This document shows, piece after piece, positions 856 through 56,350 of a stretch of 64,000 nt of DNA. The notes under the pieces were generated by a model. That model saw only the letters and a list, made by a program, of their open reading frames with translations. It had not been told where the DNA came from and searched no databases. Every line of letters starts with the position of its first letter. Within the stretch, counting starts at the first letter, position 1. The translations under genes and the position numbers were made by a program. The stretch is from a bacterium (GTDB taxonomy: Bacteria; Patescibacteriota; Patescibacteriia; Patescibacteriales; JAKAJF01). The stretch lies in assembly GCA_021788015.1 (NCBI GenBank), contig JAJYLD010000001.1, positions 209,581-273,580 on the forward strand. The letters run 5' to 3'.

Positions 856-956
856 ACGAATCCTGTTAAGGGGTGACTCCAGCGGGATTGGATTTATTTT
901 TTAAGAATTAATCTATGCGGATCAAATTTTTTTGATTGCGATCTGCTTCTAACGGG
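856..956 (+). repeat. SCAIR element (start-codon-abutting inverted repeat), short form, copy 1
   Basis: The left arm ACGAAT-CCTGTTAAGGGG (856-873) is imperfectly complementary to the right arm TCTGCTTCTAACGGG (942-956). The right arm ends one base before ATG 957. The 3' part TTTTTGATTGCGATCTGCTTCTAACGGGATGAAA closely matches 44713-44745. Confidence 0.7.
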
Positions 957-2069
957 ATGAAAGTAGCATTGGTTCATGATCATTTGGCCCAGGACGGCGG
1001 AGCTGAAAAAGTTTTAAAAACTTTGACAGAAATTTTTCCCGACGCGCCGATTTTTACTTTGCTTTACGATAAAAAAGTCGTCGAGAATAACTATAAGGAC
1101 AAAAAAATAGAAGTTTCCATAATTCAGAAATTGCCCGGCGGAGTTAAATTTTACAAATGGTACATGCCGTTTATGCCCATGGCTGTTGAATTTTTTGACC
1201 TAAGTGAATTTGATTTGGTCATTTCGGATGCCAGCGCTTTTGCAAAAGGCGTAATTACGCCCTCAAAGACTCTGCATATATGCTATTGTCACACCCCCAC
1301 GCGATATCTATGGGACTATACTCACCAATACATTAATGAACTGCACTACAACAAATATCTTAAAAAAATAATCTCATTAATTTTGAATTATGTCCGCATG
1401 TGGGATAAATTGGCGGCCGATCGCGTCGATGTTTTTATCGCCAATTCAAAATTAGTGCAAAAAAGAATCGAAAAATATTATCGTCGCGGCTCGAAAGTGA
1501 TTTATCCGCCGGTCGAAATAAATGAATTTAAAGTTTCCGAGAAGACAGAGGATTATTTCCTTATCGGGGGACGTTTGGCTCCCTATAAACGTGTTGACCT
1601 CGCCATTGAAGCGTTTAAAAATACCGATTTGAAATTGAAGATTTACGGCGACGGCGTTGATTTAAAAAGGCTCAAAAAGATAGCCGGAGACGCTAAGAAC
1701 ATTGAATTCTTGGGCAGGATTACAGACCCGGAAAAAGCGGAGCTCTATACAAAATGTTTGGCGTTCTTAAATCCCCAGGAAGAAGATTTCGGCATCACTA
1801 TCGTCGAATCCATGGCCTCGGGAAGGCCGGTAATCGCTTTCGCGAAAGGCGGCGCTTTGGAAACGGTTATCCCGGGAGTGACGGGAGAATTTTTTTACAA
1901 GCAAACCCCGGAAGCACTTTATGAAGTGATAAAAAAATTTGATTCTTCGCATTATGATTCAAAAAGAATTCGCGAGCATGCGGAAAATTTTTCATCCGAA
2001 AGATTTAAAAACGAAATAAAAGAGTTTATTGAAACGGAATATAATAGATTTAACGCATTGGCGCCTTAA
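957..2069 (+). CDS. Glycosyltransferase family 4 (GT-B, retaining)
   Basis: Starts MKVALVHDHLAQDGGAEKV, and the C-terminal half has the EEDFGITIVESMASGRPVIA motif typical of GT4. The ATG at 957 is preferred to the alternative-codon start at 936, which lies inside the repeat. Confidence 0.85.
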   Translation: MKVALVHDHLAQDGGAEKVLKTLTEIFPDAPIFTLLYDKKVVENNYKDKKIEVSIIQKLPGGVKFYKWYMPFMPMAVEFFDLSEFDLVISDASAFAKGVITPSKTLHICYCHTPTRYLWDYTHQYINELHYNKYLKKIISLILNYVRMWDKLAADRVDVFIANSKLVQKRIEKYYRRGSKVIYPPVEINEFKVSEKTEDYFLIGGRLAPYKRVDLAIEAFKNTDLKLKIYGDGVDLKRLKKIAGDAKNIEFLGRITDPEKAELYTKCLAFLNPQEEDFGITIVESMASGRPVIAFAKGGALETVIPGVTGEFFYKQTPEALYEVIKKFDSSHYDSKRIREHAENFSSERFKNEIKEFIETEYNRFNALAP

Positions 2070-14874: not shown

Positions 14875-14903
14875 TTGTCATGACACACGAAATATGATAA
14901 AAT
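14875..14903 (+). promoter_or_regulatory. Sigma-70-type promoter upstream of SCAIR copy A
   Basis: TTGTCA (14875-14880), a 17-nt spacer ending in TGa, then TAAAAT (14898-14903). Confidence 0.5.
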
Positions 14904-14925: not shown

Positions 14926-15247
14926 ATGGATCCCGTTGGAAGCCGCGATCGCGCTTCCGGGGGGAGAATAAGAATAACCAAGAGAATCTAAAGATATAAT
15001 TTAGGCGGCTATGCAATATATCTTTTTGATCGCGATCCCGACACCGCAAGTCCTATCGGATTCGGCCACGGGACAAGTTCTGCCGCACAAAATTTATTAT
15101 TAACCACGTCTCGCCCCGTAGTCACCGAATTTACGAGGCGTACCCCGTTAGAAATCTTTGGGATAAACCAAAGTAGAAATTTTTTCAAGGACATATCAGT
15201 CCGGATGGAACTTCTAACGGGGTGTACTACAGGGGCATTCTAACGGG
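14926..15247 (+). repeat. SCAIR element, long form, copy A (carries a nested small copy)
   Basis: The left arm is ATGGAT-CCCGTTGGAAGC (14926-14943) and the right arm CATTCTAACGGG ends at 15247, before ATG 15248. The core from TTGATCGCGATCCCGA onward aligns with 49522-49665 and 54048-54188. Confidence 0.8.
15143..15222 (+). repeat. Nested mini-SCAIR inserted in the core of copy A
   Basis: CCCCGTTAGAA (15143-15153) is complementary to TTCTAACGGGG (15212-15222). It interrupts GAGG-TGTA-CTAC, which is contiguous in copies B and C, and is flanked by CGTA on the left and TGTA on the right. Confidence 0.7.
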
Positions 15248-16501
15248 ATGGATAATGAAACAAAAAAATTTGGGAAACCGATCATAAGGACGATTATCAT
15301 AATCGTTCTTATGTTATTGAGTTTCGGCGCGGGACTTTATCTTCCGGGGAAAAGCGAAGTAATGCGCAATCTGTCCGCGAACGAGGCGGAATACGCCGGC
15401 AAAGTTTTAGGCCAATACGGCTTGCCGCCTGGCGGAACGATTTCCAACGATGTCAATTTCAACATGTTTTGGGATGTTTGGGACGCTCTAAAAAGCAAGT
15501 ACGTCGACCATAATAAATTAAGCGACAAGGAGATGTTTTATGGCGCTTTAAAGGGGTTGGCGGAGTCGACGGGAGATCCCTATACAGTTTTTATGGACCC
15601 CAAAGACGCCCAGAGTTTTTCAAATGATTTGGCCGGGACTTTTGAAGGCATCGGAGCCGAAATTGGAATCAAAAACAATATTTTAACCGTTGTTTCTCCT
15701 CTTGCCGGGTCGCCCGCGGACAAGGCGGGTCTTAAAGCGGGAGATAAGATTTACGCCATTAACGACGTTTCGACGGCCGGCATTTCCGTGGACGACGCGG
15801 TAGCGGAAATTCGCGGCCAGAAAGGCACGACGGTAAAATTAACCGTAATTCGCGAAGGCGTGGACAAACCCATGGATTTTGAAATTACCCGGAATACGAT
15901 TATCGTAAAGAGCGTTGATACGAAAATGGATAAGGGAATTTTTGTCATAACCATAAACAGTTTTAATGACGATACCCAGGATTTATTCGATAAAGCCGTG
16001 GAAGACGCCGTAAAAGCGAAACCGAAGGGAATCATTCTTGATTTAAGGAATAACCCGGGCGGGTACTTGGAAACTGCCATTGACGTGGCCAGCGCCTGGA
16101 TAAAAAATGGAGTCATCGTGACAGAAAAATTTTCCGACACGAAAAAGACGGATTTTCAAGCCAAGGGCGTGGCTCCTTTGGACGGTTATAAAACGGTCGT
16201 TCTTGTCAATCAGGGCAGCGCCTCCGCGTCGGAAATCGTCGCCGGAGCGTTAAAAGACGACGGCAAGGCAACTCTGGTCGGAGAAAAAACTTTCGGCAAA
16301 GGTTCTGTCCAGGATTTGGAAGATTTGCCGGACGGTTCGGAATTGAAAATAACCGTGGCGAAATGGCTGACTCCGAAAGGATACAACATCAATGAACAGG
16401 GGATAGAACCTGACGTCAAAGTGGACTTAACGCAAAAAGATTACGACGCGGGCAAAGATCCGCAAATGGACAAAGCGATTCAAATCATTAACCAAAAATA
16501 A
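15248..16501 (+). CDS. S41 family C-terminal processing peptidase
   Basis: N-terminal TM, a PDZ region (GIGAEIGIKNNILTVVSPLAGSPADKAGLKAGDKI), LDLRNNPGG, and the catalytic GSASASEI ... KTFGKGSVQ. Confidence 0.9.
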   Translation: MDNETKKFGKPIIRTIIIIVLMLLSFGAGLYLPGKSEVMRNLSANEAEYAGKVLGQYGLPPGGTISNDVNFNMFWDVWDALKSKYVDHNKLSDKEMFYGALKGLAESTGDPYTVFMDPKDAQSFSNDLAGTFEGIGAEIGIKNNILTVVSPLAGSPADKAGLKAGDKIYAINDVSTAGISVDDAVAEIRGQKGTTVKLTVIREGVDKPMDFEITRNTIIVKSVDTKMDKGIFVITINSFNDDTQDLFDKAVEDAVKAKPKGIILDLRNNPGGYLETAIDVASAWIKNGVIVTEKFSDTKKTDFQAKGVAPLDGYKTVVLVNQGSASASEIVAGALKDDGKATLVGEKTFGKGSVQDLEDLPDGSELKITVAKWLTPKGYNINEQGIEPDVKVDLTQKDYDAGKDPQMDKAIQIINQK

Positions 16502-20606: not shown

Positions 20607-20634
20607 TTGACACAATTTATTGTCATGGTATAAT
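20607..20634 (+). promoter_or_regulatory. Sigma-70-type promoter with extended -10 for the Fe-S operon
   Basis: TTGACA (20607-20612), a 16-nt spacer ending in TGg, then TATAAT (20629-20634). Confidence 0.65.
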
Positions 20635-20663
20635 AAAACCAACTAAATTAGTAGGAGATAATA

Positions 20664-20748
20664 ATACATCCCGTCAGAAGTCGTCGCTTTTGCGGGGTAA
20701 AAATTATTTTAATTTAGGCAGATTAATTAGAAGTCTGCTTCTAACGGG
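20664..20748 (+). repeat. SCAIR element, divergent short copy
   Basis: The left arm CATCCCGTCAGAAG (20667-20680) is complementary to the right arm CTTCTAACGGGATG, which ends at and includes ATG 20749. The right side carries the 19-mer GTCTGCTTCTAACGGGATG, identical to copies B and C. Confidence 0.7.
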
Positions 20749-21150
20749 ATGAAATTTTCGACAAAATCCACGTATGGCCTAAGGGCCATGATCAGGCTGG
20801 CGGAAAATTGGAAAAAAGAAAGTTTATCCTTATCGGTAATCGCAAAATCGGAAAACATTTCGCAAAAATACCTTGAAAGAATATTTGCTAGGTTAAAAAC
20901 AGCAAAATTGATCGAAAGTGAAAAGGGAGCGGGCGGCGGATATAAATTATCAAGATCTCCTTCTAAAATAAATATTTTGGAAATTATCGATGCATTGGAA
21001 GGAAAATTCGCGCCGTTTCATTGTTATACAAAAAGCGGAAAGGTTGTTTGTAGCACTTCCTGTAATTGCGGAGTTACTTTGGTTCTTAACCGCATTCAAA
21101 CCGGAATCGAAGATTCCTTAAGAAATATGAGCCTAAACCAGTTAAAATAA
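20749..21150 (+). CDS. Rrf2 family transcriptional regulator (IscR-like)
   Basis: MKFSTKSTYGLRAMIRLA winged-helix N-terminus, with C-terminal Cys residues (HCYTKSGKVVCSTSCNC). It lies at the head of the IscU/Nfu/desulfurase genes. Confidence 0.85.
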   Translation: MKFSTKSTYGLRAMIRLAENWKKESLSLSVIAKSENISQKYLERIFARLKTAKLIESEKGAGGGYKLSRSPSKINILEIIDALEGKFAPFHCYTKSGKVVCSTSCNCGVTLVLNRIQTGIEDSLRNMSLNQLK

Positions 21151-23423: not shown

Positions 23424-23437
23424 ATTCCGCTTTTTTT
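23410..23437. terminator. Bidirectional intrinsic terminator
   Basis: AAAAAGCGGAAT-AA-ATTCCGCTTTTT overlaps the desulfurase stop, between convergent genes. Confidence 0.75.
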
Positions 23438-23714
23438 AATGGAACGGATTGTTCAAACCGTCGATGTTACGAATGTATGTTTTTTGGTTTATTTTTTTTA
23501 TTATACCGTTGAATTTATTTATATCGAAAGTTTCGGTGGCGACTTCATTTTTTAACACCAAAACAATTTCAGATTGCGTAACCGATTCGTAAAAATTATT
23601 ATAAAGAAAGATGACGTCGAAATACAAAACGAAAATTATAAGCAAGACCAAAAGAAAATAAGTCGCCCCAGAAATTTTTCGGAATGAAATTTTTATTTTC
23701 CCCGCTATACGCAT
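23436..23714 (-). CDS. Small membrane-anchored protein at the distal end of the pilus operon
   Basis: 92 aa with one N-terminal TM (ATYFLLVLLIIFVLYFDVIFL). Its ATG directly follows a SCAIR right arm. Confidence 0.55.
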   Translation of the reverse strand: MRIAGKIKISFRKISGATYFLLVLLIIFVLYFDVIFLYNNFYESVTQSEIVLVLKNEVATETFDINKFNGIIKKINQKTYIRNIDGLNNPFH

Positions 23715-23807
23715 CCGTTAGAAGCGGATTTCAATCATTTTTGATTATACAAATCCGCATAAATAATGATTAAATTTTATCCCGGTCGAAGCGTGCTTCT
23801 AACGGGG
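23715..23807 (-). repeat. SCAIR element, short divergent copy on the minus strand
   Basis: Read on the minus strand: CCCCGTTAGAAGC (23807-23795) ... CCGCTTCTAACGG (23727-23715), immediately followed by ATG (23714-23712). The internal hairpin is GCGGATTT/AAATCCGC. Confidence 0.7.
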
Positions 23808-23813
23808 TAAATG

Positions 23814-24919: not shown

Positions 24920-26044
24920 TCAATCGTCGTTATTTACGAATAAATTTCTTAAACCAAGTCCGATGGCGGTGGCGTAAGTCGTTCCCGAATCCCCGTTTAT
25001 TTTTTTTAGTTTATTTTTTGTCACTTGGTTGACAATTTTTTTAAAATCGGAATTGATCACATGTCTCGCCGCATTCCCGACGGAAGTCGGTATCTGGGTC
25101 GCGACGTTGATTACGGATCCCAAATTTTTAATATTGGCTCCGCCGCCGCAAAGGATAATCTCGGTAATGGGTCCGTGTTCGGGGAAATGAGTTGAATAAA
25201 ATTCGATGGCATTATTGATTTTTTTAATCAGATCTTCTATAACGTCAGACAGAATGTTTCTGACCACGCCCTTGGCCTTACTTTCGTCAAAACCGCAAAT
25301 AAGCTTAGCCTTCTCGGCCTGATTAAGTTCAATTTTTAAAATATCGGATATTTGTTTGGTGATTTCGGTTCCGGAAATCGGAACTCCCATCGTAAAAAGG
25401 ATTGCATTCTTCGCATAAAACGTCAGACTTGTTTTTATGGCGCCGATATCTATGATAATGTAATTTTTATCAAACGGCCCTTTGTATTTGCCATTTTCTT
25501 CAGAAAGGAGCGATCGGCAAACGGCCACGGGTTCGATTTCCAGGGCGACAACCGAAAGGCCCGCTTCCGATAGTATTTTCGCGTATTGATCGACGATATT
25601 TTTCGCGGCCGCGCCTATCAGGACGTGGTAATGATTTTGCGATGTGTCTATCAGCTGCCAATCGTAATAGATGTCGTTTAAAGACATGGGAACATGCTTT
25701 TCAATTTCGAATTCAATGACATTTTCAAGATTATTCGGCCCTTTTTCGATATCAATATATTTTATAAAAGTTTTATTTTCCGGCAAACAAGCGACGACTT
25801 CGTTCGATGTGATTTTTCCGAACTGAGGATTCTCCAATAAATTTTTTATCACCTTAAGCAACTCGTTCTTATTTATGACTTCCCCTTGCCTTAAAACGCC
25901 TTCATTTAAATTAACTCTTCCCAGGGCTTGAATTTTAATTCTGTCGACTATTTTATTGAGCTGCGTGACTTTGAGAGAAGTGTCGGAAATGTCCAGACCG
26001 ACAGGATAATTGGAATTATAGTTAAACATAGTTATATTATACAA
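24920..26044 (-). CDS. pilM: Type IV pilus assembly protein PilM (actin-like ATPase fold)
   Basis: VGLDISDTSLKV, IIDIGAIKTS and LCGGGANIKNL match the PilM/FtsA-like phosphate and adenosine motifs. Confidence 0.85.
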   Translation of the reverse strand: MYNITMFNYNSNYPVGLDISDTSLKVTQLNKIVDRIKIQALGRVNLNEGVLRQGEVINKNELLKVIKNLLENPQFGKITSNEVVACLPENKTFIKYIDIEKGPNNLENVIEFEIEKHVPMSLNDIYYDWQLIDTSQNHYHVLIGAAAKNIVDQYAKILSEAGLSVVALEIEPVAVCRSLLSEENGKYKGPFDKNYIIIDIGAIKTSLTFYAKNAILFTMGVPISGTEITKQISDILKIELNQAEKAKLICGFDESKAKGVVRNILSDVIEDLIKKINNAIEFYSTHFPEHGPITEIILCGGGANIKNLGSVINVATQIPTSVGNAARHVINSDFKKIVNQVTKNKLKKINGDSGTTYATAIGLGLRNLFVNNDD

Positions 26045-44598: not shown

Positions 44599-44739
44599 AT
44601 TCCATTAGAAGCTCAGCCGGAAACGGACGAGCGCGATTGCTTCGTTGGAAAGACAATAGAAATAAAAAATAAAGGATTAAAGATTAACTCGAGCGGATAA
44701 GCAGTTCAAACTTTTTGATCGCGATTCGCTTCCAATGGG
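44595..44739 (+). repeat. SCAIR element, short form, with compensated arm variants
   Basis: The left arm is ATGAAT-TCCATTAGAAGC (44595-44612) and the right arm GCTTCCAATGGG (44728-44739) ends before ATG 44740. The internal TTTTTGATCGCGAT matches the start of the long-form core. Confidence 0.7.
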
Positions 44740-45777
44740 ATGAAAATAGCTCTCCTTGCTCCGCTTTGGAAAAAAATTCCTCCCGAGAAATACGGCGGAT
44801 CGGAATTGGTTGTCGCCAATTTGGCAAAAGGATTAACCGAACTCGGGCATGATGTGACAACCTTGGCCTGCGGCGGATCAGAAGTATCCGGCAAACTTAT
44901 TCCTGTTATTGAAAAGCCGATGTATGATCTCGTTGGCGGTTTCGATTGGAGCGGAATCAAGCAATATGAATTTTTGTCTTTTTTTGAATTGGGCAAGCGA
45001 ATAAAAGATTTCGATATCGTTCATAACCACATGGGTTTTCATCCAATCGCTCTCGCTCCGTTTCTGGATATTCCGTTTGTCACGACGCTCCATAGCAGTT
45101 TGCCGCCGGATTTTCCGTTTTTGGCCGAAGCTTTTCGCGAATATCCGTTTGTCTCAATCAGCGAGGCGCAAAGAAGATTGGCGCCAGACTTGAATTATGT
45201 CGGAACGGTATATCACGGCATCGACGTGAAATCCTTTCGGCCGCGACCTGATGGCGACGGGAACGGTTTTGTCTTTATGGGCACCATGTCTCGCAATAAA
45301 GGCATCGATATCGCGGTCAAAGCCGCTCGCGCGCTCGGAGTAAAATTGACTATCGCGGGAGAAATAAGAGAAAGCGACGGGTCCTTTCTTGAAAAGGAAG
45401 TTTTTCCCTATGTTGACGGGAAAAACATACAACTTGTCGGAGAAGTCGATCATGAAGAAAAAAATCGTTTGTTTGCCGAGGCCGACGGCGTTCTTTTTCC
45501 ATCACGCTGGAACGAAGCCTTCGGATTGGTTATGGCGGAGGCGCTCGCTTGCGGCACGCCCGTTGTTGCGCTAAACAACGGAGCGGTTCCGGAAGTTATT
45601 AGAAACGGAAAAACGGGTTTTATCGTCGAAAACGAGCGGGAATTCACGGAAGCGATGGAAAAAGTCGGCAAAATTTCAAGAGAAGTTTGCCGCTCCGAAG
45701 CGGAACGGCGCTTCGATATTTCCGCGATGGCGGAAAATTATGATTACGTATATAAAAAATTAATCCAAACAAAATGA
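44740..45777 (+). CDS. Glycosyltransferase family 4
   Basis: MKIALLAPLWKKIPPEKYGGSELVV, and C-terminal PSRWNEAFGLVMAEALACGTPVVA. Confidence 0.85.
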   Translation: MKIALLAPLWKKIPPEKYGGSELVVANLAKGLTELGHDVTTLACGGSEVSGKLIPVIEKPMYDLVGGFDWSGIKQYEFLSFFELGKRIKDFDIVHNHMGFHPIALAPFLDIPFVTTLHSSLPPDFPFLAEAFREYPFVSISEAQRRLAPDLNYVGTVYHGIDVKSFRPRPDGDGNGFVFMGTMSRNKGIDIAVKAARALGVKLTIAGEIRESDGSFLEKEVFPYVDGKNIQLVGEVDHEEKNRLFAEADGVLFPSRWNEAFGLVMAEALACGTPVVALNNGAVPEVIRNGKTGFIVENEREFTEAMEKVGKISREVCRSEAERRFDISAMAENYDYVYKKLIQTK

Positions 45778-49348: not shown

Positions 49349-49402
49349 TTTTTTCTCAGCCAGATTTTATGTCCCGGTTCTGTTTGACGGATTGCAAGAA
49401 TG

Positions 49403-49432
49403 CCTCAAATTATGTTAAAATAAATTCATGAA
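49403..49432 (+). promoter_or_regulatory. Sigma-70-type promoter with extended -10 just upstream of SCAIR copy B
   Basis: TTGCAA (49403-49408), an 18-nt spacer ending in TGt, then TAAAAT (49427-49432). The predicted start lies within a few nt of the element's left edge at 49439. Confidence 0.55.
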
Positions 49433-49438
49433 TCCCGT

Positions 49439-49665
49439 TTTAGAAGCCGCGGTAGCTTTCACGGGAAGAATAGGTCTGATGTGAAATAAATTAAAATTTT
49501 TAACTTAGCAGATATAAATCAAATTTGATCGCGATCCCGATACAACAAATCCTGTCGGATTTGGCTACGGGACAAGTTCTATCGCACAAAACTTATTTTT
49601 AACCACGTCTCGCCCCGTAGTCACCGAGTTCACGAGGTGTACTACGGGGGTCTGCTTCTAACGGG
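49439..49665 (+). repeat. SCAIR element, long form, copy B
   Basis: The left arm is ATGAAT-CCCGTTTTAGAAGC and the right arm GTCTGCTTCTAACGGG ends at 49665, before ATG 49666. The core at 49522-49665 is nearly identical to 54048-54188. Confidence 0.8.
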
Positions 49666-51129
49666 ATGAATATCACCATTGATTTTAGCGCCATAAATAA
49701 TTTCTTAAACCAGCCGCTCGGCCCGTTGATGTGGCAAATTTTTTATACGATAGGATGGATTCCCGCCGTTTTTATCATGCTTTGGGGATTCAAGGAAATG
49801 TGGGTTGAGTATATACATAATCGTTGGGCGGGAGCGCAGAAAAAGATTTTATTGGCCATAGACATACCGCGCGGCAATACGCAATCTCCGCGAGCGGTCG
49901 AGAATATGTTCGCTTACCTCGCCGGCGCTCATGGCACCATCAATTTGGTTGAAAATTATTGGGAAGGGAAAATCCAGCTTTCTTTCAGCTTTGAAATCGT
50001 CAGCATAGACGGATATACTCAGTTTATAATCCGCACGCCCGAAGTTTTTCGCCATCTTGTCGAAACCGCGATTTATTCGCAATATCCGGACGCGGAAATC
50101 ACGGAAGTGAACGACTATATCGAAGGCATGCCGAAGAAATTCCCGGACGAAGAATACGACATGTGGGGGACGGAATTCATTCAGGCGAAAAACGAGGCCT
50201 ACCCCATTAAATTATATACGGAATTCGAGCACCAGATGGGCCCGGTGGAAACTTTTTATCGCGATCCCATGGCGGCATTGATGGATTTGTGCAGCAGTTT
50301 GCGCAAGGGGGAACAGCTTTGGTTCCAGATTATCGTCAAGCCCATCGACATGAACGAGTGGACAAAAATAGGGGACAAGGAGGCGGCGAAAATATTAAAA
50401 GAGAAGCCGGCGGAAGCCAAAGGAATTCTGCCTGGCATCGAAAAGGGTTTTTTTGGATTCTTTTCCGTATTGAGCGATATGATGGGATCCATGTTCGGCT
50501 ATGCTCCGGCGGAAAAGCAAAAGGAAGAAAAAAAGGATGAATCTCTCAAGATGATGCAGTTGAAACCGAAGGAGAGGAAACAGGTCGAGGCCGTTCACGC
50601 CAAAATTGGGAAAATCGGCTTTCATTGCAAATTTAGGTTTGTCTATATCGCGAAAAAGGACGTTATGAACAAACCGAAAGTCGTAAACGGTTTCGTGGGC
50701 TTCATGAAACAATTCGCGGCCATGGATTTGAACAATTTAAAACCGGATATGAAAAAAACCGCCACATCCGTTCATTATTTTTTTAAAAACTATCGCTTAA
50801 ACGGAAGGAAAAAAAGAGTAATAAGAAACTACATTGCCAGGGACGGAGGCAAAGGAAGGAAAATGGGTATTTTCACGACAGACGAATTGGCGACAGTTTG
50901 GCACTTCCCGGTCGAAAGCGTGGTCAAAGCCCCGATGATCCAGAAAGCGCCGGGAAGAAAGGCGGAGCCGCCATCAAGCCTTCCCATCGATATCGAACCG
51001 GCAAGCGAAGCCGTCTTCGAGCCGCGATTCCGAGAAGAAGTTCTCGGTCAAAAACCGAAGCAGATGCAGGAAGAAAAAATAAAAGAAGAAGAAAAAGGTT
51101 CGCCGCCGGACAATTTACCGTTTATTTAG
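49666..51129 (+). CDS. Hypothetical membrane-anchored protein, partner of the downstream TraD/VirD4-like ATPase
   Basis: 487 aa. One N-terminal TM (LMWQIFYTIGWIPAVFIMLWGF), a large soluble body and a Lys/Glu-rich C-terminus. No family recognised. Confidence 0.6.
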   Translation: MNITIDFSAINNFLNQPLGPLMWQIFYTIGWIPAVFIMLWGFKEMWVEYIHNRWAGAQKKILLAIDIPRGNTQSPRAVENMFAYLAGAHGTINLVENYWEGKIQLSFSFEIVSIDGYTQFIIRTPEVFRHLVETAIYSQYPDAEITEVNDYIEGMPKKFPDEEYDMWGTEFIQAKNEAYPIKLYTEFEHQMGPVETFYRDPMAALMDLCSSLRKGEQLWFQIIVKPIDMNEWTKIGDKEAAKILKEKPAEAKGILPGIEKGFFGFFSVLSDMMGSMFGYAPAEKQKEEKKDESLKMMQLKPKERKQVEAVHAKIGKIGFHCKFRFVYIAKKDVMNKPKVVNGFVGFMKQFAAMDLNNLKPDMKKTATSVHYFFKNYRLNGRKKRVIRNYIARDGGKGRKMGIFTTDELATVWHFPVESVVKAPMIQKAPGRKAEPPSSLPIDIEPASEAVFEPRFREEVLGQKPKQMQEEKIKEEEKGSPPDNLPFI

Positions 51130-53108: not shown

Positions 53109-53213
53109 AAAATGTCTAAATTATAATTTCCAATTTCTAAATTTAGGAATTGGGAATTTTATTAGACCTTATAATTTAGAAATTAGAAATTTTTGTCATT
53201 ACTCTCGCCTATT

Positions 53214-54017
53214 ATGAAAATCAAAGCCAGTTTACATATTCATACCAAAGAAGATAAAAAAGAGGGTTTTTTTATAAGCTACTCGATTTATGATTTAATT
53301 GATCATGCGAAATTGTTAGGCTTCAGGGTCTTGGCCTTGACGACCCATAAAACTTTTGTTTATAAGGAAGAGTACGGAAAGTACGCGGAAGAGAAAGGCA
53401 TTTTACTAATCCCCGGAATCGAACTTGATATGCATGCGCCGTTTTTAAAACGATGCCATATTCTCGTTTTAAATTGCGAAAAAGACATCGAGAAAGTAAA
53501 AACATTTTCTGATCTGAAAAAATACAAAAAAAAGAATCCGAAAATTTTTATCATCGCCCCTCATCCCAATTTCGACTATTTCAATTCGATGGGCATGCGC
53601 AATTTGAAAAAATATATCGGACTTTTTGACGCGATCGAACATTCTTGGTTTTTTTCAACATTCTTGAATTTTAACAGACGCGCGGGAAGAATCGCAAAAA
53701 AATTCAAAAAGCCCTTTATCGCCACGGCCGATTGTCATACCCTTGATTTTTTCAATTCCGATTACATAACCCTTGACTTAAAAAAAATGGACGCCGATTC
53801 CGTATTCAAAAAATTAAGAGAAAGAAAGTTTGAAAATGTGACCAAACGAAAAAAATTCTTGAAAATAATTTTTTATTATCTTAAAGAATTTATCTTTAAA
53901 TATTACGGATTGCTTTTGATCGTAAAAATTAAGAACATTTTAGAAAAAGATACGAATCCCGTTAGAAGCCGCGATCGCTTTAATGGGGAAAAAATAAAAC
54001 ATGAAAAAATTTCATAA
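53214..54017 (+). CDS. PHP family metal-dependent phosphoesterase
   Basis: The ATG at 53214 gives MKIKASLHIHTKED (HxH motif), with later TTH, APHP and ADCH metal-ligand motifs. The last 22 codons run through the left arm of SCAIR copy C. Confidence 0.7.
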   Translation: MKIKASLHIHTKEDKKEGFFISYSIYDLIDHAKLLGFRVLALTTHKTFVYKEEYGKYAEEKGILLIPGIELDMHAPFLKRCHILVLNCEKDIEKVKTFSDLKKYKKKNPKIFIIAPHPNFDYFNSMGMRNLKKYIGLFDAIEHSWFFSTFLNFNRRAGRIAKKFKKPFIATADCHTLDFFNSDYITLDLKKMDADSVFKKLRERKFENVTKRKKFLKIIFYYLKEFIFKYYGLLLIVKIKNILEKDTNPVRSRDRFNGEKIKHEKIS

Positions 54018-54188
54018 TAATATGCAGATTATAGAATCAAAATTTTTTTTGATCGCGATCCCGATACAACAAATCCTGTCGGATTTGGCTACGGGACAAG
54101 TTCTATCGCACAAAACTTATTTTAACTACGTCTCGCCCCGTAGTCACCGAGTTTACGAGGTGTACTACCGGGGTCTGCTTCTAACGGG
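53952..54188 (+). repeat. SCAIR element, long form, copy C
   Basis: The left arm ACGAAT-CCCGTTAGAAGC lies inside the 3' end of the PHP gene, and the right arm GTCTGCTTCTAACGGG ends at 54188, before ATG 54189. Confidence 0.8.
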
Positions 54189-55745
54189 ATGGATTATCTA
54201 AAAATTGGAAAAGCCACGGATCTCGATGGCGGGGATAAAAAATTATACCGGTTTTTGGAAATTCTTCCCGGCTCGCTTTCCTGGGCGACTTTAATCATTT
54301 TAACTTTGGCATCTTATCTCTGGCCGGTATGGGCGGCTTATTTTATTATCGCCTTTGACGTTTATTGGCTCTTATTGGTCGCTTTTCTTGGAATTCATTT
54401 GATTGTCAGTTATCGCAAATTGACGCAAAACAAAAAAGTGAATTGGGAAAAGGAATGTGAAAAAATCGATCTTTCCGATTCCGGTTTCAGTTTCGATTCC
54501 TGGCGAGACGTTTATCATCTCATAATTTTCCCGACCTATAACGAGAGCCTGGAAATTATCCGCCCCAGCATAGAAAGCGTTTTAAACGACGGCTATCCTT
54601 TGGATAAAATTATTCTGGTTTTGGCGATTGAAGAACGCGGCGGTCCCGAAGCTTTGGAGCGCGCGAAAACGATCGAGCGAGAATACGGAAATAAATTCGG
54701 ACATTTTTTAATTACCACCCATCCCGATGGAATTGTCGGAGAACTTAAAGCAAAGGGCGCGAACCAAGCATGGGCGGCCCGAGAGGTCAAAGAAAAAATT
54801 ATCGACAAAGAGGGGATCGATTACGATCGTATACTTGTGAGCGTTTTTGATATCGATACGATTGTGGATAAAGGTTATTTTTTCCGTCTGACCCAAAAAT
54901 TTTTAACTTCAAAAAATCCTTATCGCGCCAGTTATCAGCCGGTTCCTGTTTATTTCAACAATCTTTGGGAAGCGCCTTTTTTCGCGCGCGTGGCCGCATC
55001 CTCGAACACTTTTTGGCAAATGATGCAACAGATCAGGGAAGAAAAATTGGCGACGTATTCATCTCACTCTATGACATGGAAAGCTTTGGTTGAAATAGGA
55101 TTTTGGTCGACAAGTATGGTTAGCGAGGACTCAAGAATTTTTTGGCATTGTTTTTTGTATTATAACGGCGATTATCGAGTGGAACCGCTTTATTTTCCGG
55201 TATCGATGGACGTTACCATGGATGAAAGCTTTAAAAAAACCATGATCAATTTGTACAAACAGCAAAGGAGATGGGGCTGGGGCGTGGAAAATTTGCCCTA
55301 TCTTATGTTTAATACGATAAAAAGATGGAAAATTTTGCCAAAAAAAGGAAAAATGATCAATCGCATTTCGGTTCAACTTTATGGATTTCACTCCTGGGCG
55401 ACAAACGCCCTTATTATCGGTATTATCGGTTGGTTTCCCGTTCTTCTTGGGGGGGGGCGGTTTAATTCCACCGTGCTCTCCGGAAATTTACCTTATATAA
55501 GTCGAACGTTAATGACCTTGGCTATGGGCGGCATGGTTTTATCGGCCGTCGTTTCAACATTGCTTTTGCCCGAAAGACCGAAAAGATACGGATTTATAAA
55601 AAATATTATCATGTTTTTTCAATGGTTGATTCTGCCATTGAGCATAATTATTTTCGGATCCATCCCCGGGTTGGAGGCGCAGACTCGCTTGATGTTGGGC
55701 AAATATATGGGTTTCTTTGTTACGCCGAAAGCGAGAAAAAGTTAG
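54189..55745 (+). CDS. Membrane-embedded GT2-like synthase with a QxxRW motif
   Basis: N-terminal TMs, a GT-A-like core (IIFPTYNESLE, VFDIDT, SEDSRIF), YKQQRRWGWG, and C-terminal TM helices. Confidence 0.75.
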   Translation: MDYLKIGKATDLDGGDKKLYRFLEILPGSLSWATLIILTLASYLWPVWAAYFIIAFDVYWLLLVAFLGIHLIVSYRKLTQNKKVNWEKECEKIDLSDSGFSFDSWRDVYHLIIFPTYNESLEIIRPSIESVLNDGYPLDKIILVLAIEERGGPEALERAKTIEREYGNKFGHFLITTHPDGIVGELKAKGANQAWAAREVKEKIIDKEGIDYDRILVSVFDIDTIVDKGYFFRLTQKFLTSKNPYRASYQPVPVYFNNLWEAPFFARVAASSNTFWQMMQQIREEKLATYSSHSMTWKALVEIGFWSTSMVSEDSRIFWHCFLYYNGDYRVEPLYFPVSMDVTMDESFKKTMINLYKQQRRWGWGVENLPYLMFNTIKRWKILPKKGKMINRISVQLYGFHSWATNALIIGIIGWFPVLLGGGRFNSTVLSGNLPYISRTLMTLAMGGMVLSAVVSTLLLPERPKRYGFIKNIIMFFQWLILPLSIIIFGSIPGLEAQTRLMLGKYMGFFVTPKARKS

Positions 55746-55924: not shown

Positions 55925-56350
55925 ATGGCGCGCGAAGGAAAAAATTTTAAAGCATTTTTATTCAATCAAAGAACTTTGGCCATTTTAGGCTTAGCCGTAC
56001 TTATTTTGATTGCGCTTCCCTTATTTCGCAATATTTCCCAGAGGTACGAAATAAGCAAAGAAATAAAAGACACACAAAACGAAATAAATAAAATTGAAAA
56101 CAAAAATAACGATTTGAAAAATTTGATCGATTATTTGGGATCAAAACAATATTTAGAAGAAAAAGCAAGGCTGAATTTCGGTTTGGAAAAACCGGGAGAG
56201 CAAGTTGTCGTTGTTGAAAATTCGGGGCAAAATCAATCAAGCAGTTCCGATAATAACGCGATTTTCAGTTTGCCGAAAAATCAAATTCAACCCGCTTCCG
56301 CCGGAAAGAATAACGTCGATAGATGGATAAGTTATTTTTTTAAGAAATAA
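55925..56350 (+). CDS. ftsB: Septum formation initiator family protein (FtsB/DivIC-like)
   Basis: Short cytoplasmic tail, one TM (LAILGLAVLILIALPLF), a coiled coil (EIKDTQNEINKIENKNNDLKNLI), and YLEEKARLNFGLEKPGE. Confidence 0.75.
   Translation: MAREGKNFKAFLFNQRTLAILGLAVLILIALPLFRNISQRYEISKEIKDTQNEINKIENKNNDLKNLIDYLGSKQYLEEKARLNFGLEKPGEQVVVVENSGQNQSSSSDNNAIFSLPKNQIQPASAGKNNVDRWISYFFKK

Follow-up and report, generated by a model that had tools for sequence, protein, structure and literature searches.

Copies B and C, two long and nearly identical repeats in a 64-kb window from a bacterium of the Patescibacteriota (64,000 nucleotides of GenBank contig JAJYLD010000001.1, assembly GCA_021788015.1; all coordinates without a locus prefix are those of this window), were found to be part of a family of seven elements plus one nested copy within the window. 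B and C are probably members of a lineage-restricted, modular, co-transcribed family of leader elements in the Parcubacteria, resembling transposable elements of the miniature inverted-repeat class (MITEs), in which a closing helix would bury the start codon of the downstream gene. Each element is bounded by a 14-nt terminal inverted repeat, ATCCCGTTAGAAGC on the left and GCTTCTAACGGGAT on the right, the first 14 nt of the element being the reverse complement of its last 14 nt; the repeat is perfect in copy C and carries one to five mismatches in the other members. The final AT of every element is the AT of the downstream ATG. One internal orientation relative to the abutted gene was observed in all seven window elements and at three loci of a second genome, and the ATG junction was likewise found at all 10 of these loci. 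The elements are placed between the start codon of a gene and, on the upstream side, either that gene's own promoter or the stop of the preceding gene. They measure 83 to 320 nt and contain only short, non-conserved upstream open reading frames (ORFs).

The family was found via a list of genes with their upstream sequences, a mismatch-tolerant repeat search, and then the pairing of left and right repeats. In the gene list, GCTTCTAACGGG-ATG also preceded further window genes, and CTTCTAACGGGATG, with up to three mismatches allowed, gave 18 matches in the window versus 4.2 expected. The original prediction had described three long copies, A, B, and C, and the repeat search of the window recovered each of them where it had been placed. 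The members are as follows, with IR-L and IR-R denoting the left and right terminal inverted repeats:

860-958, plus strand: short member, ending in the start of a GT4 glycosyltransferase gene (ORF 957-2069) and beginning 5 nt past the stop codon of an upstream sugar transferase gene
14930-15249, plus strand: copy A, with IR-L at 14930-14943, core from 15025, and IR-R at 15236-15249; S41 peptidase start at 15248-15250
15143-15220, plus strand: nested mini-element of about 78 nt inside the copy A 3' hairpin, bounded by an inverted repeat of its own (CCCCGTTAGAA/TTCTAACGGGG); flanks GCGTAC/GTGTAC
20668-20750, plus strand: short member, ending in the start of an Rrf2 regulator gene (ORF 20749-21150)
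23713-23808, minus strand: short member, ending in the start of a 92-aa membrane protein ORF (23436-23714, minus strand)
44599-44741, plus strand: short member, ending in the start of a GT4 gene (ORF 44740-45777), its IR-L beginning at the stop codon of an upstream GT2 gene
49432-49667, plus strand: copy B, with IR-L at 49432-49447 (UU bulge), local hairpin to 49465, linker, core at 49524-49653, and IR-R at 49654-49667; DUF8128 start at 49666-49668
53956-54190, plus strand: copy C, with IR-L at 53956-53969, 5' hairpin to about 53988, linker at 53989-54047, core at 54048-54176, and IR-R at 54177-54190; GT2 start at 54189-54191

The minimal form consists of a 5' hairpin, an AT-rich and locus-specific linker, (T)TGATCGCGATC, and the right repeat. 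Short members (83-143 nt) are without the two-hairpin core of about 112 nt seen in A, B, and C, and have (T)TGATCGCGATC fused directly to TGCTTCTAACGGGATG; in the long form (A, B, and C), the two-hairpin module of about 112 nt lies between GCGATC and TGCTTCTAAC. The linkers also contain a motif, GC(A/G)GAT, 15-25 nt before TTGATCGCGATC (window positions 49469-49523, 53992-54047, 900-930, and 44690-44710, and about position 2480 of the comparison locus L030). It is complementary to (G)UCUGC directly before the right repeat, and the variants GCGGAU/AUUCGC and GCGGAUC/GAUCUGC look compensatory by reading. This motif could form a second helix or be part of a promoter.

Exact comparison of the three long copies showed that their likeness is modular. 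Core counts were taken from pairwise alignments, and linker identity was gauged against shuffled sequence. It had been predicted that the cores of B and C differ at about four positions, including a 1-nt indel; the alignment of the B core (49524-49668) with the C core (54048-54191) gave 141 identities over 145 positions (97.2%), with three substitutions and one single-base indel at the very sites that had been listed (B versus C: TTTTT/TTTT for the indel, then AACCACG/AACTACG, GTTCAC/GTTTAC, and ACTACG/ACTACC). Copy A is clearly more diverged, as had been said, its core being 84.1% identical to B or to C once the nested insert is taken out; the copies are thus not all equally near-identical. 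Identity of the 5' hairpin was 78.6% between B and C and 72-76% between A and either of them. The AT-rich segment does differ among all three copies: linker identity was 58.7% for B and C (shuffled control 56.6%) and 54-60% for A with B or C, which is the level of the shuffled controls (54-57%). The likeness of B and C is therefore restricted to the core and ends at module boundaries, and the two look the youngest of the family. Three occurrences of the 18-mer TCTCGCCCCGTAGTCACC were counted in the window, versus 0.02 expected. The genes that follow A, B, and C are unrelated, as claimed, and encode an S41/CtpA-type peptidase, a DUF8128 membrane protein, and a GT2 glycosyltransferase, respectively. 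The non-coding nature of the core was also upheld, with indels that differ among the A, B, and C cores and an ORF that begins only at the final ATG.

In the second genome, three paralogous cores (L011, L012, and L013) were identical or at most three positions apart, and their linkers were unrelated. The orthologous copy in a sister genome, L004, differed from those cores at about 10 positions in mid-core, with flanks about 93% identical by eye. The paralogous cores thus evolve in concert, by gene conversion or by repeated re-insertion of the core. Because the identity of B and C is bounded by the core, and because paralogs are homogenised in the second genome, we infer that the 97% identity arose by gene conversion or by a recent copying event of the core module, and not by selection on a conserved riboswitch. 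Of the two explanations that had been offered for this likeness, the one by recent duplication or gene conversion is thus supported; purifying selection alone appears insufficient, since paralogs exceed orthologs in likeness.

The location of the elements at gene starts depends on the correct assignment of start codons, and homologs verify three of these. The homologs of DUF8128 align over 100% of a 487-aa ORF (49666-51129), whereas the public model P0001 has 466 aa and begins 21 codons downstream of the ATG at the end of the element. As the homologs cover the full 487 aa, the longer ORF is likely the true gene, with the start of P0001 placed too late. For GT2, the N-terminus of the L020 ortholog is MDYLKIGKAGDL versus MDYLKIGKATDL in the window, and MDYLKIGKA of the ortholog confirms the start. 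For BipA of the second genome, the first 59 nucleotides are the same in the L023 ortholog. Recognisable promoters were found upstream of the left repeat:

49392-49421, plus strand: native promoter of the DUF8128 gene, TTGCAA-18-TAAAAT (promoter scan), left of copy B
14875-14903, plus strand: promoter-like site left of copy A, TTGTCA-17-TAAAAT (scan)
20607-20635, plus strand: promoter-like site of the Rrf2 copy, TTGACA-16-TGgTATAAT, upstream of IR-L (by eye, not scanned)

A consensus scan of the linkers gave no promoter above threshold; by eye, TATAAT-like boxes were seen there at variable distances. To the left of copy B, ATGAAT is found at 49428-49433, 6 nt past the -10 box, and recurs at the start of the DUF8128 gene; to the left of copy A, ATGGAT at 14926-14931 recurs at the start of the S41 gene. 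Short upstream ORFs run from the left ATG of A (14926-14991, 21 codons) and of B (49428-49484, 18 codons) and cross the left repeat; a 2-nt indel puts them in different frames, and their peptides are accordingly not conserved. The upstream-ORF ATG in B lies 6 nt after the -10 box and could open a leaderless mini-ORF. A Shine-Dalgarno-like motif was found before 5 of 55 window genes, versus a background of 6%, and a -10-like box lies 5-10 nt from the ATG in five genes, e.g., those at 55925, 24920-26029 (minus strand), and 46870. This suggests that initiation in the window is independent of Shine-Dalgarno pairing and partly leaderless. A Shine-Dalgarno-like role of the 3' end of the element was ruled out, as it has no GGAGG-like motif and only those 5 of 55 genes in the whole window are preceded by a Shine-Dalgarno-like motif.

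Structure prediction gave every member a fold with the terminal repeats as closing stem, at an energy below that of shuffled sequence (z from -2.5 to -9.3). The predicted closing helix has 12-14 bp, the start codon contributing its A and U to it. As an alternative, the left repeat of each of the seven window copies can fold back locally on a copy-specific partner next to it. Across copies, four double compensatory changes and six plain mismatches were counted in the closing helix; the member at 44599-44741 shows a compensatory G-C to A-U change there. These counts are suggestive of selection for pairing in the closing helix. Several known RNA classes were considered and dropped. ARAGORN found only tRNA-Thr and tRNA-Gly genes, both away from the elements, and the tRNA-like reading was rejected. 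A ribozyme, hammerhead, or group I intron has no support from Rfam, and the short members are far too small. The integron attC consensus is GTTRRRY / RYYYAAC; the likeness of GTTAGAA / TTCTAAC to it was rejected, the order of the boxes being the reverse of that in attC.

Relatives of the region were reached via DUF8128 homologs of about 63% identity, in L018 (JGI metagenome) and L020 (NCBI CAYHWE01). Both have the order MurC - MurB - sigma-r4/HARE-HTH - DUF8128 - VirD4-like ATPase - PHP or DUF1361 - GT2 - DivIC - PBP - FtsE/X, and the same gene order is present in the window. No element was found at either locus, the core profile search included. It had been proposed that the two copies bracket the ATPase module, possibly as a composite unit. 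This was not borne out: because the same genes occur in the same order in L018 and L020 without the element, the B-to-C interval is ordinary conserved synteny of a cell-wall and division cluster, with no composite transposon.

Empty orthologous sites were found for DUF8128 and GT2 (L018 and L020) and for BipA (L023-L026), in relatives of at most 87% protein identity (about 63% for DUF8128 and 84-87% for BipA). As orthologous positions are not conserved, dispersal or mobility is favoured over a conserved positional riboswitch. At the DUF8128 site of L018 and L020, the spacer between the sigma gene and DUF8128 carries a terminator and a promoter, and the -10 box TAAAAT ends 6-7 nt before the ATG, an apparently leaderless arrangement. 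The window site keeps the same promoter type, followed 6 nt on by ATGAAT and then by the left repeat of copy B. At the GT2 site, L020 has a PHP gene overlapping the start of GT2, whereas the PHP-domain ORF of the window (53193-54017, plus strand) crosses IR-L of copy C and has its stop codon in the linker. Since the relatives have these promoter/ATG and PHP-GT2 arrangements without the element, both sites look like insertions into a conserved cluster. At the BipA site, the place of the element is taken in the relatives (L023-L026) by a promoter together with a small GGCCnnnnGGCC-U7 hairpin. One of them, L026, is a related Parcubacteria contig with an IS200/IS605-type Y1 transposase gene (PF01797) at L026:20983-21675; no link between this gene and the element was found.

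The end of the PHP protein was also compared. Its last 20 or so residues are encoded by the element in the window; the L020 protein ends ...FLFKIYGLSKNWKSG, and in the window protein FIFKYYGL (versus FLFKIYGL) is found 15 codons ahead of the repeat. The sequences suggest that the history at copy C may be more complex than a simple insertion.

The elements share with MITEs their small size, the lack of coding capacity, terminal inverted repeats, and multiple dispersed copies. Six-nucleotide direct repeats flank some of them: they are perfect for A (ATGGAT/ATGGAT) and B (ATGAAT/ATGAAT) and match at five of six positions for the 44.6-kb copy (ATGAAT/ATGAAA) and the nested copy (GCGTAC/GTGTAC). 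Long target duplications were dropped as a possibility, because local alignment of left and right flanks was not significant anywhere (best for copy C, p ~0.09). A different insertion was seen at L004:6982-7236, where an unrelated element of 255 nt, with terminal inverted repeats of 12 nt (AGACCTCCTGCA ... TGCAGGAGGTCT), separates a TATACT -10 box from the start of a small membrane-protein gene, to which it contributes GGAGG and a new ATG at its right end. It is not at the orthologous site of L014, a clean presence/absence polymorphism between genomes that are about 93% identical in the flanks (by eye). Since this 255-nt element is present in L004 and absent from L014, insertions at gene starts evidently occur and persist in these genomes.

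The family was sought beyond the window by exact-pattern scans for the long form and by a core profile search over the fetched loci. The long form was found in few places: the Parcubacteria metagenome-assembled genome (MAG) GW2011_GWA2_45_30 with matching Rifle groundwater contigs, and a Sungiibacteriota MAG. In the GWA2_45_30-type genome, at least three loci carry it, upstream of a signal-peptide protein, of BipA/TypA, and of one further ORF, and each copy ends in ATG. A partial copy, with the core 3' hairpin only, lies beside a tRNA gene in a Nomurabacteria MAG. The core profile search found no more copies in any other fetched locus. The bare inverted repeat was found in Nomurabacteria as a 66-nt three-way-junction element, 51 nt before a start codon, and 11+11-nt repeat matches occurred independently in three phage-like IMG/VR contigs, one with a terminase. 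The latter are tight hairpins with CCCGTTAGAAG/CTTCTAACGGG arms (L028:2296-2355, L029:4875-4944, and L030:2494-2587). In L028 and L029, the hairpin begins at the upstream stop codon, with a Shine-Dalgarno sequence and ATG after it; L028 encodes the large terminase, and the gene after its hairpin is glycosyl/methyl-transferase-like. L030 has two tandem tight hairpins, one with a compensatory AGAGG/CCUCU change. Scans of viral contigs with spacers of 51-80 and 195-225 nt gave no match, and neither did blastn against the INPHARED phages.

Details of some of these loci bear on how they were assembled or rearranged. The Nomurabacteria partial copy (L003:1690-1830, which equals L009:1150-1345 and L010) has the tRNA gene on the opposite strand, with an Arg anticodon GCG by reading, and is flanked by an 18-nt direct repeat, CCGTTGAACGACGGGATC, which is the complement of the tRNA 5' end. 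The Logan contigs L017 and L022 (SRR13170411) start within the element, at 65 nt and 25 nt ahead of the ATG, a pattern that fits breaks in the assembly at a multi-copy repeat. At L005:3465-3600, compared with L014, the GenBank MAG contig LCKU01000005 lacks a stretch of about 118 nt that is present in the metagenome contigs and comprises the 3' part of the element together with the signal-peptide-coding start of the downstream gene. The gap may reflect either a variant with a deletion or an artefact of assembly.

Several observations weigh against a mobile, helix-forming family. Only fairly distant relatives showed the empty sites; the close pair L004 and L014 both keep their copy, and no strain-level presence/absence polymorphism of the element family was observed. 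Flanking repeats are poor in C, in the 0.9-kb and 20.7-kb copies, and in L004 and L012, and are imperfect or absent in about half of the members; the PHP frame at copy C fits a duplication of 2 nt or longer, not one of 6 nt. No transposase or recombinase domain was found among about 45 window ORFs scanned, nor was an autonomous element with the same ends found in the window, where no repeat pair flanks a large ORF. A symmetrical mobile element would be expected in both orientations and also away from start codons. The strict orientation and start-codon junction are unlike those of a random MITE and therefore need selection or targeting. As to the helix, one-sided changes comprise seven that give G-U on the plus strand versus four that do so only on the minus strand, with no clear strand, and 10 mismatches stand beside the four double changes. 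RNAalifold found no compensatory change among 32 predicted pairs of the core, whose sequences are very similar and too low in diversity for a firm negative. Because neither a target duplication nor a mobilising enzyme is established, the family is best filed as a variant of the co-transcribed bacterial MITE-like repeats and not as a proven MITE.

It is possible, but in our judgement unlikely, that the repeats are instead a cis-regulatory RNA, a riboswitch or protein-binding leader of an envelope-gene regulon, in which the core of about 145 nt would serve as sensor and the left repeat, pairing either locally or with the start-codon region, as expression platform, with purifying selection as the reason for the likeness of copies. 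The AUG junction and orientation fixed at 10 of 10 loci would fit this, as would the stable predicted folding and the three-segment alternative pairing, in which the local hairpin is kept in seven of seven window copies by different 3' arms. The two core hairpins are near-invariant across three lineages and the region between them varies. Most of the downstream genes are envelope-related (GT4, GT4, GT2, S41 peptidase, DUF8128, and a secreted protein); however, BipA and the Rrf2 regulator are also among them. Rfam is silent on the element: at the gathering threshold, the whole window gave only two tRNAs, and copy B gave only chance matches at E<10. The core has no covarying pairs, and short members do without it altogether. 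Position is not kept, the element being absent in relatives before the orthologs of DUF8128, GT2, and BipA. Limits of identity at module boundaries and homogenised paralogs are typical of repeats, and the nested copy breaks the 3' hairpin in A. A functional RNA of conserved position is disfavoured.

Far less probable is an inverton, in which the 14-nt inverted repeats would be invertase sites that flip an AT-rich promoter segment and so phase-vary surface and glycosyltransferase genes. The same inverted repeat does enclose AT-rich segments of 80-320 bp before several glycosyltransferase and surface genes, and TATAAT-like boxes occur in the linkers (by reading). All copies, however, are oriented alike, also in five independent assemblies of a single locus (L004, L005, L013, L014, and L016); promoters matched best outside the repeats, on the upstream side of the left one; the right repeat would separate any internal promoter from the AUG; no recombinase was found among the window ORFs scanned; and a conserved 112-nt module is not expected. 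That B and C are terminal direct repeats of a composite mobile unit carrying DUF8128, ATPase, and PHP is scarcely credible, despite two 97%-identical direct repeats 4.5 kb apart and an ATPase that is VirD4/TrwB-like, given the repeat-free L018/L020 cell-wall and division cluster with the same gene order, the lack of a transposase, repeats that encode nothing, and the presence of the same repeat family before unrelated genes elsewhere in the window.

The closest known counterparts of a MITE-like leader family are the Correia elements of Neisseria (CREE/NEMIS). These are likewise small and non-coding, have terminal inverted repeats, are dispersed in intergenic positions beside genes, occur in long and short size classes set apart by an internal segment, and are co-transcribed with neighbour genes, as is probable here. 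It has been shown that the terminal-repeat hairpin of the Neisseria elements is bound or cut by RNase III, which alters expression (PMC2649163; PMC10969869). For the window element, such cleavage would be a hypothesis by analogy. There is no sequence similarity between the two; the 26-bp repeats, TA duplication, IHF site, and promoter-forming ends of CREE were not seen here, and CREE do not end systematically at a start codon and occur in both orientations. BOX, RUP, ERIC, and the bacterial MITEs also resemble the window family in being modular with optional internal modules, in forming stable RNA structure, and in being lineage-restricted and multi-copy. Effects of these repeats on the expression of neighbour genes have been proposed (PMC3049150; PMC2229807; PMC10969869). 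Unlike them, the window element is found in a Parcubacteria host, of the Candidate Phyla Radiation (CPR), without Shine-Dalgarno use, supplies the AU of the AUG, is strictly of one orientation, shares its repeat with phage-like contigs, and has no known parent insertion sequence.

Rickettsia palindromic elements are palindromic repeats that occupy function-compatible sites and are fused to coding sequence (PMC10969869). The window PHP ORF that runs into copy C, and the short upstream ORFs that start at the left ATG of A and B, are reminiscent of these; the Rickettsia elements, however, lie inside ORFs and are translated in frame, whereas the window elements lie before ORFs, outside the main protein. 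RNA thermometers, riboswitch platforms, and ermC-type leaders share with the predicted fold an initiation codon in a helix whose partner can form a local hairpin. In contrast to such leaders, which sequester the start codon or the Shine-Dalgarno sequence, the window element is not conserved in position and not in Rfam, and control of it by a ligand, temperature, or a leader peptide would be hypothetical. The family is distinctive in that the AU of the AUG is supplied, the orientation is fixed, the build is modular and nested, the cores evolve in concert, the CPR hosts do not use Shine-Dalgarno sequences, and the repeat is shared with phage-like contigs.

Because recognisable promoters lie upstream of the left repeat, each element would be co-transcribed as the 5' leader of the downstream gene. 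In the RNA, the terminal repeats would form the closing helix, loop out the insert, and pair the A and U of the start codon, and the local 5' hairpin would compete for the left repeat. Most plausibly, the closing helix would act as a translation gate or as a processing site for a double-strand RNase, controlling or restoring access to the AUG; this proposal draws on initiation without Shine-Dalgarno sequences, on some promoters of leaderless type, and on the Correia analogy. The short flanking direct repeats and the nested copy point to a transposition-like insertion as the way in which the elements may spread, and the phage-like contigs with the repeat suggest a possible route between lineages. 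The fixed orientation and the start-codon junction leave a role at the RNA level open, and regulation or processing of this kind is a plausible possibility.

A further-reaching version, which is tentative and which we consider doubtful, is that of a mobile 5' leader cassette. It would insert at the first bases of genes and turn genes without Shine-Dalgarno sequences, some of them leaderless, into leadered genes with a helix-gated AUG. The helix would be opened by translation of the residual mini-ORF at the 5' end, or else a double-strand RNase would cut it and so restore a leaderless mRNA, and the core of about 112 nt would add a sensor. The outcome would be a common post-transcriptional envelope regulon in CPR bacteria, with phages as vectors.

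For annotation, the family accounts for three long conserved non-coding repeats, for contig breaks, and for the mis-called start of DUF8128. Genomes of the CPR, including the Parcubacteria, are tiny, and mobile repeats are thought to be rare in them. If the elements do act at the RNA level, they would bear on the control of initiation without Shine-Dalgarno sequences and on regulons built by mobile elements; if the cassette version were also true, glycosyltransferases, the S41 peptidase, DUF8128, and secreted proteins would be wired into one regulon.

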